Assembly (NCBI GenBank): GCA_964513145.1
Contig: CAZELK010000003.1
Coordinates: 48,870 to 112,869, forward strand
DNA: 64,000 nucleotides
Direction of reading: 5' to 3'
Origin: Candidatus Woesearchaeota archaeon
GTDB lineage: Archaea; Nanobdellota; Nanobdellia; SCGC-AAA011-G17; JACPIM01
Both the position numbers and the translations under genes were made by a program. Shown here one piece after another: positions 4,025 through 10,090 of this stretch. A model generated the notes under the pieces. The model did no database searches, was not told the DNA's origin, and was given only the letters and a program-made list of their open reading frames with translations. Numbering within the stretch: the stretch's first letter is position 1; the number at the start of each line of letters is the position of its first letter.

Positions 4025-4663
4025 CTAGCTTGCTTCTGCGAATTTTATTCTCAAATTTTTTAATTCCTTTTTAATTTTATTATGAATGGTTGCTGCTGAG
4101 ATGTCTAATTCTTTAGCAACTTTCTTCATACTTTTTTCTTCTTCAAAATACTTTTTAAATATATCTTTAGTTTGCGGTTCCTTGATGCTGTAATTTATAC
4201 ATTTTAATAATTCTTCTTTTTCTAGAATATCTACTTGCTTTTCTCTTTCTGATTCTACTATCTCTTCCAATTGAGACCAATTATTATTTGTAACATATCT
4301 ATGTCTTTTTTCTTTTCTTAGCGAGTCAAGTATTTTACTTTTTGCACATGAATAAACGTATGTTGAAAATCGGCTTTGATAATTATAATTTTCAATATTA
4401 TTTATGGCTTTTAATAATCCCAGATTTCCTATGCTTATCAAGTCTATAAAATTAATTTTACAACCTAGAAATTTATTCGCAACAGCACTAACAACCCAAA
4501 GATTATGATTTAGCAGTTTTTCTTTTATTTTTTCATCTTTTTTAGCTTTTTCTACCAATTCTTTTTCTTCTTCGTCATTTAGCCTGTGATATTTACTTAT
4601 TTCATTAAAATAAATCTCAATTACATCAACACCATTTTTTCTTTTATATTCCAATCTTTTCAT
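4025..4663 (-). CDS. sigma-70 family RNA polymerase sigma factor-like protein (regions 2 and 4 only; ECF/SigH-like size)
   Basis: NLWVVSAVANKF..FIDLISIGNLGLLKAINNIE..SRFSTYVY aligns with sigma region 2 (NLRLVVSIAKKY..FLDLIQEGNIGLMKAVEKFD..KFSTYA). C-terminal SMKKVAKELDISAATIHNKIKKELKNLR aligns with the region 4 HTH (TLEEVG..VTRERIRQIEAKALRKLR). ATG start; AT-rich like neighbours. Confidence 0.75.
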   Translation of the reverse strand: MKRLEYKRKNGVDVIEIYFNEISKYHRLNDEEEKELVEKAKKDEKIKEKLLNHNLWVVSAVANKFLGCKINFIDLISIGNLGLLKAINNIENYNYQSRFSTYVYSCAKSKILDSLRKEKRHRYVTNNNWSQLEEIVESEREKQVDILEKEELLKCINYSIKEPQTKDIFKKYFEEEKSMKKVAKELDISAATIHNKIKKELKNLRIKFAEAS

Positions 4664-5063
4664 TATTAGAAATTTAATTTTTGTATTTTAATATATTTCT
4701 ATCTAGAAAGAATTTTTTATTAATAATTTTAGAATTAAAAAAATAAAAAAACATAGGTAATTGGCTTGTATTTTATTTTTGGGCTATTAGTAACTGCAAG
4801 CTGAATACGTCGCCGAAGCTTCGTACTTACACTTCAGTCCTATCAAACTCATGTTCTTTGAGCGCCCTATATCTCTTTTCAAGTATAGCTTCCTCCTTAG
4901 ATGCTTTCAGGAGTTATCTATTAGAGCGTAGCTGCTCGGCCTGCCTTGTCAGACAACCGATACACCAGAGGCTCCGAATCATTGTTCCTCTCGTACTAAA
5001 TGATCCTTACCTTCAGATATTAAGCACTTCCAGTAGATATAATCCAAACTGTCTCACAACGTT

Positions 5064-5150
5064 ATGTTAAACGGGAGGAATTGAACCTCGCTTCGGCAAA
5101 TACATAGAGATGTTTTAATTTGCTTATGTATTTGCTTACAACCGTTGCTT
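5064..5150 (-). other. intron-like insertion (about 87 nt) in 23S domain V between GAGCTGGGTT and AACGTTGTGAGACAG (A-loop / helix 92-93 region)
   Basis: Canonical GGGTTTAGAACGTCGTGAGACAG is interrupted. The insert contains an 11-bp hairpin GCAAATACATA/TATGTATTTGC and AACGG/CCGTT at its ends. Confidence 0.55.
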
Positions 5151-5204
5151 AACCCAGCTCACGAACCATTTTAATGGGTGAACACCCCCACCCTTGGCTG
5201 CCTA

Positions 5205-5394
5205 CAGTTCGAAGGACAATTCGTGAAAATAGTTTTCCTTAAAGTCAAAATATTAGTGATTAATTTAATATAGTTCTAAATAGTTCTCAAATTAACATAC
5301 TAATTTTTAGACTTCTAAGTAATAGATATCGGAAATAAAAGACATTTTGACTTGAAAAACTATTGTTCGTATGATTGTCCTTCGACATTCTGCA
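5205..5394 (-). other. intron-like insertion or expansion (about 190 nt, very AT-rich) in the 23S 3' domain within the GGCTG...CAGCC helix loop
   Basis: Closed by a perfect 12-bp inverted repeat TCGAAGGACAAT/ATTGTCCTTCGA, with outer CAG/CTG pairing. Flanking rRNA sequence GTGGCTG / TAGGCAGCCAAGGGT is conserved. A further 31-nt hairpin insert sits at 5401-5432. Confidence 0.5.
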
Positions 5395-7034
5395 CAGCCA
5401 CTATATTGATACAAGAATTAACTTTATATCATGGATATGGTGAGCCGACGTCGAAGTAGCAAACAGCGCCATCGATATGAGCTCTTAGGCGCTACGACTC
5501 AGTTCTAGGGATCTAAGAGAAAATTTTTGATCTCTAAGATTATCCCCGAGATAGCTTTTCTGTCATACCTAGCCCCTATTAATAAGGACATAGGGGTTCG
5601 CTAGACCAGACTTTCGTCTCTGGATTTTTTAATAGTCAAAATCCAGTCAGGCCAACTTTTGCTCTTGCACTCTTCAGAAGATTTCCAAACTTCTTGAGTT
5701 GACCTTAGGGCCCTGTTGATATCTTTTCAACAGGGTGCCGCCCCAGCCAAACTGTCCAACTGCTGCTGTCCCAACTTTCGTTGGTAAGTAACATAAATTC
5801 TACAGAGTGGTATTTCAATTTTGTCTATCCTTAACCTAGCAGCTAAGGCATAGCGACTACCACCTATACTACACAGTAGAACATATATCACAACAACAGT
5901 CTACAGTAAAGTTCTACGGGGTCTTTTCTTCCCGCTGGAAGTCTCTGGCCTGCACACCAGAAGGGTATTTTCAGTGGATACTAACTAGGGACAGTGCGGA
6001 TCTCGTTACGCCATTCATGCGCGTCGTCATTCAAACGACAAGGTACAACGATATCATTAATCTCATTTCTCAGATTCAACTTTTCAGTTCAAAATGTGAA
6101 AGATATTTTTTGTTTAACAAACCCAAGGCAATTCTCTTAGATGAATGGCTTTTTCATCAAAATCTATAGCGAGATTAATGATAATTTCGCTACCTTAAGA
6201 GAATTATAGTCTAGAATTGTTAAAGATTTTTCTTACAACAAATATTCCCGCCGTTTACAAGTCCTTAGCCTCCTTGAAAAGAGGTTTTAGATACTTGCAC
6301 TGGGCAGACGTCACGTCTCATACACATCATTGCTGACTTGCGAGACGTTACGTTTTTGTTAAACAGTCGGACCCGCCTAGTCACTGCGCCCTGTAATTGC
6401 AGTTAGAAACTACAACCGCAGGGATTCCTTCTACCAAAGGTACGGAACTAAATTGCCGATTTCCCTTAGCTAGTTTACACCATCATACCTTAGGCTTCTC
6501 ACCTAGAGTACCTGTGTTGGTTCTGGGTATAATTATTCAAGATCCTTTTTAATTTCATTTTCACGGACTCCAGGCATCAACCAAATGGACCATAAGGTCC
6601 ACTATTCTTAAAATTAATCAAGTTCTCACCATTACGGTACTTCCTTGATTTGTTTTAATTAACATCCAAGACAATAGATGTTGGCTTAGCCCAAAATGTC
6701 TGAAACTAAACTTGTGTTACCACGCGTACTTGAATAGTAAAGGAATATTAACCTTTTTCCCATTCCCTAAGACCTATTAGGCCTTTGGTTAGGATTAACT
6801 TACTCTTAGCTGATTTGCATTGCTAAGAAACCCTTACTCTTACGGTATCAGGGAGTCTTACCCTGTATTGCTCCTACTACTACCAGGATTCTCATTTTTA
6901 TTAGGTCCACTATTTCTTTCGAAAAAGCTTCTACCCTAACAAAGCGCCTACCTACCACATAAGTTCTTTACTTAGTCTATAGTATCGGTAACTGATTTAG
7001 CCCCGTCCATCTTCAGGGCATATAACCTTGACAG

Positions 7035-7077
<43 letters not shown>

Positions 7078-8348
7078 TACCTCCCTGCTGTCTCTGGTTA
7101 TACACGCCTTTTACCCTTTAACACTTAATCAGTATTTAGGGACCTTAACTATAGTCTGGGTTGTTCCCCTCTCGCGATATAAGCTTAACCCACATCGCTT
7201 TTTCCTAAGGTCTCAGATGACAAAATATTCGGAGTTGGACGAAGAGGGGAGGAATTTCTTCCCCTTACCCCTAAATCCGTAGCTCTACAATTTTATCTAT
7301 CTCACTTAAGACTAGACTGAGGCCTATTTCGGTAGGAACCAGCTATAACCAGTCTCGATTGGCTTTTCACCCCTAATCTAAGGTTATACAAACAGATTTA
7401 CACTAGAACTGCTTCAGGCCTCCACAAGGTTTTACCCCTGCTTCACCTTACCCTAGAATAGATCGACTGGATTCGGGTAGCATCCAAGTGACTATAGGCA
7501 CTTTCATACCTAACCCCTCCTTGAAAAGTGTGGGTTTTTGGTTTCCCTTCAAGTTCAAACTGAAAAGTTTTTACTTTCGCCACTTAAATGCACTCCCTGG
7601 CTCGTTATTCGAAACGCACGATACAACTCCGAAGAGCAGTATCATTCTGTATTCATTAGGTTTCAGGATCTTTTCACTCCATGTTAAAGGTTCTTTTCAA
7701 CTTTCCTTCGCAGTACTCTTTGCTATCGGTCTCAAGTTATATTTAGAGTTGGAAGTTAATAGCTCCCACATTCACACCCCATATCCGAGGAGTGCTACTC
7801 TGGATACCTCGCAAGTCTATTAATCTGCTCTACAGGACTATCACCTTCTATGATGTCTTTTTCCAAAGAACTTTGAGCAGAATTAATTAAGATCAAAAGC
7901 AAGGTCCAAACACTACATTTCTATTTTATTTCTAAAATAGATTCAGTTTGCTCTATGTCGTTTTTTCTCGCTGATACTCACGACATCTATTTGATTTCTT
8001 TTCCTCCAGGTACTAAGACGTTTCAATTCCCCAGGTTCCCAATCTTTTCAGATTTAATGAGAAGTCTCATTCAGAAATCTCCAGTTCACAAGTTGCATGC
8101 ACTTCGCTGGAGCTTATCACAGCTTGCCATGTCCTTCTTCGGAACTTGAGCCAAGTCATCCACCTAATGAAGTAGGAAAAATACAGGCCAATTACCTATG
8201 CACGGAACTATATAAAAATAATTCCCTTGACCCAAAAAAATTTCTTTTTCTGAGCTGCATTTTAAACTTTTTAAAAAAAGTTTAATCAAAAATAAGAACC
8301 GAGGTTCTTTTCAACTCCTAAAAGTTGATTATATTTTTGAATATGAAA

Positions 8349-8495
8349 TGGACCCGTCGGGATGTTCATTACTTTTAATTTCTCAAAAGTTTATTTTGAA
8401 CCCGAGGCCCCTGCCTTGCAAGGGCAGTGCTCTATTGCCCCAAACTTTGTAAAAAGTTTTGATCAAATTATTTGACCAGACTGAGCTACGGGCCC
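8349..8495 (-). tRNA. tRNA-Ala(TGC) in the 16S-23S spacer, interrupted by two introns (D-loop about 40 nt; T-loop about 32 nt)
   Basis: Reverse complement GGGCCCGTAGCTCAGTCTGGTCA[..40 nt..]GAGCACTGCCCTTGCAAGGCAGGGGCCTCGGGTTCAAA[..32 nt..]TCCCGACGGGTCCA. G3:U70 identity pair; anticodon loop CTTGCAA; T-stem TCGGG/CCCGA. No encoded CCA. Confidence 0.8.

Positions 8496-8545: not shown

Positions 8546-10090
<1,545 letters not shown>

Follow-up and report, generated by a model that had tools for sequence, protein, structure and literature searches.

Bulge-helix-bulge (BHB) introns occur in crenarchaeal rRNA genes, such as the 23S gene of Desulfurococcus mobilis (I-DmoI) and the 16S and 23S genes of Staphylothermus, Pyrobaculum, Thermoproteus and Aeropyrum. 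The large-subunit position LSU 2449 is that of the yeast mitochondrial omega group I intron with its I-SceI, and LSU 2593 is also a group I site. In the Thermoproteales, the 16S introns comprise endonuclease-encoding forms, remnants and hairpins under about 50 nt, and pairs of introns lying a few nucleotides apart have been attributed to co-conversion (PMC4496867). The LSU and SSU genes of DPANN archaea contain BHB introns beside group I introns (Nawrocki, Jones and Eddy 2018, PMC6125680); the group I introns have been characterised at LSU 1923, 1931, 2500 and 2593, and the BHB introns appear there only in a figure (PMC6125680). Splicing endonucleases include the types alpha4 with L3 loop, (alpha-beta)2 and epsilon2. 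Relaxed BHB motifs require an enzyme of broad specificity (PMC5829648).

The present analysis deals with a 16S-tRNA-Ala-23S operon located in the window, i.e., the whole stretch of 64,000 nucleotides that was analysed. The host, which has a low G+C content of about 40%, belongs to a DPANN or Woesearchaeota lineage and is presumably of mesophilic habit. Nine short insertions interrupt the rRNA operon, six in the 23S gene, one in the 16S gene and two in the tRNA-Ala gene of the spacer, and we are confident in reading them as archaeal BHB introns in the operon of a Woesearchaeota-type (DPANN) archaeon.

Layout of the operon and its insertions

The exons score as full-length archaeal LSU and SSU with their conserved cores intact (Table 1). 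The 23S gene measures 3421 nt for the 2987 positions of the RF02540 model and 2911 nt once its six introns are removed, and the 16S gene goes from 1544 nt unspliced to 1469 nt spliced. The E. coli numbering of the sites was taken from the spliced 23S sequence; a MAFFT alignment of the unspliced gene with E. coli fails at the large inserts.

The three domain-V insertions reported in the preliminary description are present on the minus strand at the places given, and the coordinates 5064-5432 assigned to the group are exactly the outer intron boundaries. Their lengths, put at 87, 190 and 31 nt, were close without being exact (84, 186 and 32 nt), and the count of three for the 23S gene has to be doubled, quite apart from the insertions of the 16S and tRNA-Ala genes. 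In the alignment to RF02540, the H93 region has 91 nt where the model has 8, and H91 has 223 nt where the model has 5. The 84-nt insert, flanked by GGGUUAAG and AACGUUGUGAGACAG, contains the 11-bp hairpin described for it (GCAAAUACAUA/UAUGUAUUUGC), and the 186-nt insert is closed by the 12-bp repeat TCGAAGGACAAT (5209-5220) / ATTGTCCTTCGA (5364-5375), as had been seen. The suspicion that the gene held another insert proved well founded, since three more were found, one in domain V and two in domain IV; the latter account for the AT-rich stretch at 6000-6200, which had been left without an explanation. No ORF of more than 50 aa overlaps any intron of the window, in line with the earlier observation on the first three. 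Compared with 64 full-length 23S and 26 full-length 16S relatives, no further window-specific insertion of at least 8 nt was detected, barring one variable region around spliced position 620.

Table 1. Genes of the rRNA operon and their predicted introns, in window coordinates (rRNA introns are named by E. coli positions; H, central helix; arrows, predicted cuts within the two bulges)
Feature	Coordinates	Strand	Description	Junction
23S rRNA gene	4767..8187	(-)	Rfam RF02540, 2246.6 bits, full length	
23S intron 2588/2589	5064..5147	(-)	84 nt, base of H93, adjoining U2585	H GUUA/UAAC; bulges AG↓C, AU↓A; inner helix AACGG/CCGUU
23S intron 2534/2535	5202..5387	(-)	186 nt, H91 loop, 26% G+C	H GCAG/CUGU; bulges AA↓U, AG↓G; inner helix 12 bp beyond one G.A mismatch; outer helix GGCUG/CAGCC beyond one unpaired U
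23S intron 2521/2522	5401..5432	(-)	32-nt hairpin, 5' base of H91, after CACCAUAUCC	H AUAU/AUAU; bulges CC↓A, AG↓U; inner helix 8 bp; outer helix 2 bp
23S intron 2449/2450	5505..5541	(-)	37 nt, domain V, peptidyl-transferase centre, adjoining A2451	H GGGG/CCCU; bulges AU↓A, AG↓A; inner helix 10 bp with one U.U mismatch
23S intron 1938/1939	6046..6184	(-)	139 nt, domain IV	H GCGA/UCGU; bulges AA↓U, UG↓U; inner helix 13-14 bp, UAUCAUUAAUCUC/GAGAUUAAUGAUA; outer helix AAGGU/ACCUU beyond one unpaired A
23S intron 1912/1913	6211..6242	(-)	32-nt hairpin, domain IV, H69 loop	H GGAA/UUCU; bulges UA↓U, AG↓A; inner helix 6+4 bp
tRNA-Ala(UGC) gene	8349..8495	(-)	147 nt, 16S-23S spacer, two non-canonical introns	
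tRNA-Ala T-loop intron (59/60)	8363..8394	(-)	32 nt	H UUCA/UGAA; bulges AA↓A, CA↓U; outer helix is the 5-bp T stem
tRNA-Ala D-loop intron, about position 19/20	8435..8475	(-)	41 nt	H GUCU/GGGC; bulges GG↓U, AA↓U; outer helix is the D stem
16S rRNA gene	8546..10089	(-)	Rfam RF01959, 1354.2 bits	
16S intron 793/794	9287..9361	(-)	75 nt, 790 loop	H UUAG/CUAA; bulges AU↓A, AU↓A; inner helix 7 bp

Genes of this kind are not handled correctly by standard annotation and primers. The lengths of the 23S and 16S genes are inflated, the intron of the 16S 790 loop interrupts a widely used primer region, and the spacer tRNA-Ala escapes ARAGORN as well as the tRNA model of Rfam, neither of which gives a match on the unspliced gene; without its two predicted introns it becomes a tRNA of 74 nt with G3:U70 that ARAGORN recognises. 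A candidate C/D-box guide RNA in the 139-nt intron, suggested by UGAUGA and CUGA motifs in the window copy, was rejected by eye, the boxes being absent from the related locus L079. An Nre gene neighbours the rRNA genes; the exact match to its protein is a 5.3-kb Logan contig that stops short of the rRNA genes, and a scan of the genome collection with the Nre protein found no relative.

Junction structure of the predicted introns

A permissive BHB scan of the whole operon yields 1251 matches and is uninformative alone, so that a test constrained to the junctions, with a null, was used. A 4-bp central helix between two 3-nt bulges on opposite strands occurs at all seven rRNA inserts, namely the three of the preliminary description, for which BHB motifs had been suggested, and the four additional ones, as well as at both tRNA inserts. 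Random pairs of sites in the operon pass at a rate of 6.3e-4 and shuffled introns at 3e-4 to 1.9e-3. When each bulge is cut between its second and third nucleotides, the exons join into the exact consensus rRNA, which no other register achieves, and the predicted spliced rRNA junctions are identical to the consensus of Rfam and E. coli.

The strength of the flanking helices differs between the two sides of the motif. The inner helix (h') is strong at every junction (4-14 bp). Five of the seven rRNA junctions have a weak outer helix (h) or none, with 0-2 directly adjacent pairs, rising to 3-5 bp past one unpaired nucleotide at LSU 1938, LSU 2534 and SSU 793. Owing to this weak outer helix, most of the rRNA introns are better classed as relaxed BHB (HBh'-like) than as strict hBHBh'. 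The 2521/2522 intron comes nearest to a strict BHB among the rRNA introns, and the full hBHBh' is found at one junction only, that of the tRNA T-loop intron. The relaxed motifs would imply a splicing endonuclease of broad specificity (PMC5829648, PMC3239211). Neither the tRNA splicing endonuclease EndA nor the ligase RtcB is encoded among the window ORFs of at least 150 aa. The surroundings of the 16S and 23S genes gave no convincing candidate for a BHB processing stem; the best one for 16S, in which the leader pairs with the T-loop intron of tRNA-Ala, was discarded as probably a chance match of two A/U hairpins.

Occurrence at related loci

The variable-region expansions shared by relatives, by which the preliminary description would have recognised something other than introns, were not encountered: most of the 116 related loci compared, from Woesearchaeota genomes and metagenomes, have no insert at these sites. 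In L124, which is 96% identical, all six 23S introns are absent, and in L079 (91.5% identical) only the 2521 intron is absent. Intron-less relatives carry the predicted exon junctions letter for letter. The same intron set recurs in the independent assemblies L079, L119, L120 and L123. Between lineages with exons 90-91.5% identical, the introns share 64-87% identity, the length-variant H69 pair being excluded.

At 2588/2589, homologous introns of 83-85 nt occur in L079, L024, L119 and L120, and the inner helix is maintained by compensatory changes in L046 (AGUGG/CCACU), L040 (UGUGG/CCACA) and L107 (AGGACG/CGUCCU); the site is empty in L121, L122 and L125, where the junction reads GGGUUAAG↓AACGU. 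At 2534/2535, thirteen other loci have introns of 29-214 nt, and L124, L121 and L122 have the empty junction GUGCAGAA↓GCAGCC. Covariation at this site, computed over 14 sequences, leaves 81.6% of the cells paired versus 27-48% in slid controls, with a score of 0.46 versus 0.10-0.24 in these controls and a value reached by 0/500 shuffles. The 2521/2522 site is empty (AUAUCC↓UGGCUG) in L079, L120, L123, L124, L121 and L122, and is occupied in L019 by a 34-nt intron with the compensatory central helix GUAU/AUAC, versus AUAU/AUAU in the window.

Other sites show introns of more variable length. A 39-nt version of the 2449/2450 intron occurs in L119, and L124, L121, L122 and L125 are empty there (GGGGAU↓AAC); in L079, L120 and L123 the same site harbours a 606-nt intron with the same termini, which encodes a LAGLIDADG protein (PF14528, 1.5e-9). 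Homologues of 120-121 nt at 1938/1939 are found in L079, L119 and L120, with empty junctions (GCGAAA↓UACCUUG) in L124, L121 and L125. The 1912/1913 intron has a 33-nt version of 97% identity in L119 and a 132-nt version with unchanged termini in L079 and L120; L124, L121 and L125 are empty (GGGAAUA↓ACUAUAAUUC). In the 16S gene, the 793/794 site contains an 84-nt homologue in L120 and introns of 107-109 nt in L070, L117 and L076, and none in about 25 other loci. As to the spacer tRNA-Ala, the D-loop position is also interrupted in L120, L123, L119, L113, L116, L064, L077 and L061, and the T-loop position (59/60) in many related loci.

Interpretation, origin and comparison with known systems

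Between the two readings offered by the preliminary description, spliced BHB introns and retained expansion segments, the former is supported by the motif in its correct register, by intron-less alleles with exact junctions and by covarying helices. In the precursor RNA, the 4-bp helix would arise between the 3' end of the intron and the final six nucleotides of the 5' exon, and the two intron ends would pair as an adjacent inner helix, thus exposing two 3-nt bulges on opposite strands. EndA would cleave each bulge after its second nucleotide, RtcB would join the exons, and the intron would probably be circularised; the freed exon nucleotides could then refold into the mature H69, H91, H93, peptidyl-transferase ring and 16S 790 loop. 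Cleavage, ligation and circularisation presumably proceed as established for the crenarchaeal rRNA introns.

The insertion sites lie within the universally conserved core, in the H69 loop, beside A2451, beside U2585 and in the 16S 790 loop, so that an rRNA keeping inserts there should be unable to function. That the inserts are nevertheless expansion segments kept in the mature ribosome would agree with their nature of stable hairpins with strong closing stems, and the short H91-loop inserts of some relatives (29-50 nt) could superficially resemble helix extensions. This is very improbable, however: the sites are invariant (the H69 loop tip, 2449/2450 by A2451, 2588/2589 by U2585) instead of belonging to variable surface helices, the inserts are missing in close relatives, their interiors evolve faster than the exons, and their conserved 3' ends pair with the 5' exon in the BHB register without extending the host helix. 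A somewhat less remote, still improbable reading is that the RNA is cut at the BHB sites and the exons are not rejoined, the mature 23S consisting of several pieces that base pairing and proteins keep together, in the manner of bacterial intervening sequences. All the evidence on the cut sites fits this reading equally well, sequence alone being blind to ligation. Exons are ligated, however, in every studied archaeal rRNA intron of which the sources speak (Kjems and Garrett, cited in PMC3608112; RtcB, cited in PMC4496867). Furthermore, six breaks would release exon pieces of 13 nt (5400-5388) and 26 nt (6210-6185), unlikely to be stably held, and a functional tRNA-Ala needs ligation after removal of both introns.

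To read the inserts as degenerate self-splicing introns of group I or group II has next to no probability, even though 2449 and the stretch 2585-2593 are well-known hotspots of group I insertion and group I introns are documented in DPANN LSU genes (PMC6125680). Relatives do have group I introns in the same gene, one matched by RF00028 in L040 and a probable one after U2593 in L124. The latter, a 709-nt insert scoring below the Rfam gathering threshold for group I, had been considered as a 2588 BHB intron and was rejected as such, its exon ending in AACGU, its intron-final G and its LAGLIDADG ORF fitting a group I intron after U2593. In the window, no match to RF00028 or to group II was obtained at the Rfam gathering threshold, by a search able to find such an intron since RF00028 detects that of L040. 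With 32-186 nt, the inserts are too small for a catalytic core, and their boundaries fit the BHB and not a U.G pair at the 5' splice site with an intron-terminal G. A decaying pseudogene or a chimeric assembly, with a clean operon elsewhere in the genome, is equally hard to credit, and nothing speaks directly for it: LSU and SSU scores are full-length with intact conserved cores, the inserts are precise and not random, and the intron set is repeated in the independent assemblies mentioned above.

Taking the inserts as BHB introns, we propose from their sequences that those of the window may be remnants of endonuclease-bearing mobile introns, since they contain no ORF of more than 50 aa and the 606-nt homologue in L079 encodes an endonuclease. 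Their ancestors would have been mobile introns whose homing endonucleases targeted conserved rRNA sites, the ORFs having since been lost. The 2449/2450 site would accordingly document a decay series, from the 606-nt endonuclease-bearing intron to a 37-nt remnant keeping just the splice motif. Neighbouring introns lie close together, 2521 and 2534 being 13 nt apart and 1912 and 1938 26 nt apart. At least 14 Nanoarchaeota and Woesearchaeota lineages have ORF-less introns of 29-214 nt at LSU 2534/2535. A speculative idea, to which we give little weight, is that this and other sites of the peptidyl-transferase centre form a hotspot of mini-introns uncatalogued in the literature consulted, either persisting or spreading with no homing endonuclease of their own (for instance by co-conversion with a neighbouring intron or by reverse splicing) or serving through their splicing as an assembly checkpoint. 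In the checkpoint version, splicing at H69, A2451, U2585 and the 16S 790 loop would hold ribosomes inactive until EndA and RtcB act.

Compared with the crenarchaeal rRNA introns, those of the window resemble them by their BHB junctions, their location at conserved functional sites, their optional presence among relatives, their closely spaced pairs and, when relatives are considered, the same mixture of LAGLIDADG-encoding introns, ORF-less remnants and short hairpins. They differ in that the crenarchaeal hosts are hyperthermophilic whereas the present one is a low-G+C, presumably mesophilic DPANN archaeon, and in that the window introns are all ORF-less, number six per 23S gene and have mostly relaxed junctions. 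With the DPANN introns of PMC6125680 they share the host group (Woesearchaeota, Pacearchaeota, Micrarchaeota), the genes and the occurrence of several introns per gene, but the window lacks group I introns and its BHB sites differ from the tabulated group I sites. The D-loop and T-loop (59/60) introns of tRNA-Ala, with their BHB junctions, are similar to the non-canonical tRNA introns of the Thermoproteales and DPANN, on which splicing endonucleases of broad specificity act. The group I introns at LSU 2449 and 2593 occupy the same or neighbouring peptidyl-transferase targets and are likewise comparable by the LAGLIDADG endonuclease of the long homologue; in contrast, they rely on ribozyme chemistry, whereas a protein endonuclease would act here on predicted BHB junctions devoid of a catalytic core. 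A small-genome DPANN archaeon would tolerate nine predicted protein-dependent splicing events per rRNA set. The understanding of how archaeal introns work is left unchanged, and the operon adds a heavily loaded case to a phenomenon already known, and represents no new kind of element.

Inserts of the rRNA genes and geometry of their junctions

Alignment with the archaeal Rfam model and direct reading of the sequence confirmed the three 23S inserts of the preliminary description, whose range of 5064-5432 corresponds to their exact outer boundaries, but the set was incomplete: three more inserts occur in the 23S and one in the 16S rRNA gene. Towards the 3' end of the 23S rRNA, the alignment displays 223 nt in place of 5 in the H91 loop and 91 nt in place of 8 in the H93 loop. 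The AT-rich stretch at 6000-6200, left unexplained in that description, is accounted for by the 139-nt insert. The E. coli numbering of all seven sites was established on the spliced sequence. In a comparison with full-length relatives (64 for the 23S and 26 for the 16S), no other window-specific insert of at least 8 nt was found, except for one ordinary variable region. None of the inserts contains an ORF of more than 50 aa.

Features of the rRNA operon and its surroundings (window coordinates)
Feature	Position	Strand	Size	Site (E. coli) and remarks
16S rRNA gene	8546-10089	-		Rfam
16S insert	9361-9287	-	75 nt	SSU 793/94, 790 loop; between GGAUUAGAU and ACCC
tRNA-Ala(UGC) gene	8495-8349	-		16S-23S spacer; two non-canonical BHB introns
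tRNA-Ala D-loop intron	8475-8435	-	41 nt	BHB junction, outer helix = D stem
tRNA-Ala T-loop intron	8394-8363	-	32 nt	59/60; BHB junction, outer helix = T stem
23S rRNA gene	4767-8187	-	3421 nt	Rfam archaeal model, full-length; 2987 model positions
23S insert	6242-6211	-	32 nt	LSU 1912/13, H69 loop tip
23S insert	6184-6046	-	139 nt	LSU 1938/39, H70/71 region; directly after GGUAGCGAAA
23S insert	5541-5505	-	37 nt	LSU 2449/50, peptidyl-transferase ring next to A2451; between GGGGAU and AAC
23S hairpin insert (described earlier)	5432-5401	-	32 nt	LSU 2521/22, H91 base
23S insert (described earlier)	5387-5202	-	186 nt	LSU 2534/35, H91 loop; AT-rich, 12-bp closing repeat
23S insert (described earlier)	5147-5064	-	84 nt	LSU 2588/89, H93 base next to U2585
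Sigma-70-like ORF	4025-4663	-	212 aa	bacterial sigma-70 regions 1.2, 2 and 4; ~100 nt downstream of 23S 3' end

All seven rRNA inserts exhibit the register of the bulge-helix-bulge (BHB) motif. In each case, a 4-bp helix forms between the final six nucleotides of the exon and the 3' end of the insert, followed by a 3-nt bulge on each strand and by an inner helix of 4-14 bp built from the two ends of the insert. The archaeal splicing endonuclease canonically cuts each bulge between its second and third nucleotides, and cutting there yields the exact consensus rRNA at all seven sites. In the same junction test, random position pairs of the same spacings in the same operon pass at a rate of 6.3e-4 and shuffled inserts at 3e-4 to 1.9e-3, so that seven passes out of seven are far more than chance would give. 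At most rRNA sites, the outer helix is weak (0-2 bp directly adjacent), which makes the majority of the motifs relaxed (HBh'-like) and not strict (hBHBh'); at LSU 1938, LSU 2534 and SSU 793, an outer helix of 3-5 bp occurs past one unpaired nucleotide.

The spacer tRNA-Ala gene, in its unspliced form, was detected neither by ARAGORN nor by the tRNA model of Rfam. Removal of its two introns gives a normal 74-nt tRNA-Ala with a G3:U70 pair, which ARAGORN recognizes. Depending on the relative, the spacer tRNA-Ala contains zero to three introns, located in the D loop, at 37/38 and at 59/60; all three occur in locus L119 (151-455, minus strand), resulting in a gene of 305 nt. Since the tRNA needs ligation to function, a working cut-and-ligate system accepting non-canonical positions is very likely. 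No clear processing-stem BHB was found around the 16S or 23S gene; the best BHB-like pairing of the 16S leader (window 10107 and 8379, minus strand), involving the T-loop intron of tRNA-Ala (6+4+6 bp), is probably a chance match of two A/U-rich hairpins.

Distribution and sequence change of the introns among relatives

A search pattern derived from the exon that separates two of the inserts retrieved 116 loci, mostly annotated as Woesearchaeota, Nanoarchaeota or Nanoarchaeia, from a species-representative genome collection, and a metagenome scan provided seven further loci. At any given site, no insert is present in most of the 116 genome loci. The closest full-length match, L079 (Ca. Woesearchaeota archaeon RIFCSPHIGHO2_02_FULL_29_19, with a spliced 23S 91.5% identical to that of the window), places the window in the Woesearchaeota. 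The sigma-70-like ORF beside the 23S gene fits this placement, because such genes are reported to be prevalent in this group (PMC8204110).

L079 possesses introns with the same boundaries as those of the window at all six 23S sites but one (132, 120, 606, 178 and 84 nt); the exception is 2521/22, where AUAUCC directly precedes UGGCUG, as predicted for the junction. The 606-nt intron at 2449/50, which harbors a LAGLIDADG endonuclease (PF14528, 1.5e-9), has the same termini as the 37-nt intron of the window, so that the window copy is the remnant of a mobile intron. Mini-introns of 33, 121, 39, 174 and 85 nt occur in L119 (89.7% identity), L120 and L123 display a pattern like that of L079, and L121, L122 and L125 are mostly devoid of introns. 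The closest relative, L124 (Ga0209542_10201786, a 1851-nt contig with 96% identity over spliced 23S positions 1848-2905, the 3' ~1060 nt), lacks all six BHB introns and exhibits the literal predicted junctions at the five sites from 1912/13 to 2534/35; past 2588/89, its exon continues unbroken as far as U2593, where a different insert follows. This 709-nt insert contains a LAGLIDADG ORF (LAYIAGFLDGDGSI) and has boundaries typical of group I (exon ending in U, intron in G) with a score below the Rfam gathering score; it is probably a LAGLIDADG-bearing group I intron. In the 16S rRNA, introns at SSU 793/94 are present in L120, L070, L117 and L076, and in none of about 25 other loci. An extra 42-nt BHB intron (H = GCUC/GAGU) occurs in H89 near E. 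coli 2472 of L019 (JACPIM010000006.1, minus strand, ~4620-4665 of the reverse complement; 80% identical), a position without intron in the window. Besides the introns, a C replaces the normally invariant peptidyl-transferase-centre U2504 at window ~5452 (minus strand), in UUCGACGUCGG; the C also occurs in L079, L120 and L124, and the U is kept in L019 and L121.

LSU 2534/35, in the H91 loop, looks like a recurrent hotspot of ORF-less introns in many Nanoarchaeota and Woesearchaeota genomes. Introns of 29-214 nt occur there in fourteen sequences, carriers besides the window including L099, L118, L070, L096, L117, L061, L077, L094, L008, L107, L019 and L125. Most of them terminate in CUGUAG, the CUGU of which pairs with an exonic GCAG. 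The sequence of the inner helix varies among these introns, but its pairing is kept, with 81.6% of cells paired versus 27-48% in slid controls and a covariation score of 0.46 versus 0.10-0.24; none of 500 shuffles reached the observed value. Similarly, the central helix of the 34-nt L019 intron at 2521/22 reads GUAU/AUAC instead of AUAU/AUAU in the window, which is a compensatory change across exon and intron, and the inner helix at 2588/89 consists, depending on the lineage, of AACGG/CCGUU, AGUGG/CCACU, UGUGG/CCACA or AGGACG/CGUCCU. Between lineages, intron interiors are 64-87% identical and exons 90-91.5%, which suggests a weaker constraint on the interiors. At the 2588 site, the 5' ends of introns in L046, L040 and L107 resemble the flanking exon (GUGGUCGUGAGCUGGGUA versus exonic GGUUCGUGAGCUGGGUUAAG), and that of the window intron (5147-5130, minus strand), CAACGGUUGUAAGCA, resembles the 3' exon AACGUUGUGAGACA; this resemblance could be exon mimicry or the trace of an insertion event.

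Proposed splicing model and comparison with known systems

The inserts are, with high confidence, introns of the type processed by the tRNA splicing endonuclease EndA. The standard archaeal splicing model is best supported, by motif, junctions, homology, covariation and patchy distribution. In the transcript of the operon, EndA would recognize every BHB and cut both of its bulges, the ligase RtcB would join the exons, and the introns would probably circularize. Exon strands once paired to the intron would then refold into the mature helices; in H69, for example, GGAA would pair with an intronic UUCU before splicing and with the exonic UUCU of the stem thereafter. Cleavage, ligation and circles are inferred here from crenarchaeal rRNA intron work (cited in PMC3608112 and PMC4496867). 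Motifs relaxed in this way imply an endonuclease of broad specificity, such as those described for several DPANN lineages (PMC5829648, PMC3239211); no EndA or RtcB gene was found among the ORFs of at least 150 aa in the 64-kb window.

BHB cuts devoid of ligation, an unlikely alternative but one compatible with the sequence, would result in a fragmented 23S rRNA; they would leave exon pieces of 13 nt and 26 nt and are at odds with the ligation needed by the tRNA. Retention of the inserts as expansion segments, the alternative considered in the preliminary description to the BHB introns now supported, is contradicted by the core positions of the sites, by the missing inserts in close relatives and by the BHB register of the junctions. 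Self-splicing introns are contradicted by the insert size and by the group I and group II covariance models, which found no match anywhere in the window. Similarly, a pseudogene or an assembly artefact is contradicted by the intact exons and by four independent assemblies with the same intron set.

This type of intron is already known, since BHB introns were described in the 16S rRNA of Thermoproteales by Jay and Inskeep (PMC4496867) and in the LSU genes of DPANN archaea, together with group I introns, by Nawrocki et al. (PMC6125680). In a non-exhaustive literature search, no catalogue of the particular BHB sites of the window was found. This operon is notable for its host group, for its load of nine introns, for intron sites located at the catalytic centre and for an intron whose decay from 606 nt to 37 nt is documented. 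The three classes distinguished in Thermoproteales, endonuclease-encoding introns, remnants and BHB-keeping hairpins under about 50 nt, all recur in the window operon and its relatives. In addition, the close pairs 2521/2534 and 1912/1938 look similar to the neighbouring Thermoproteales introns, 7-8 nt apart, which have been explained by co-conversion (PMC4496867).
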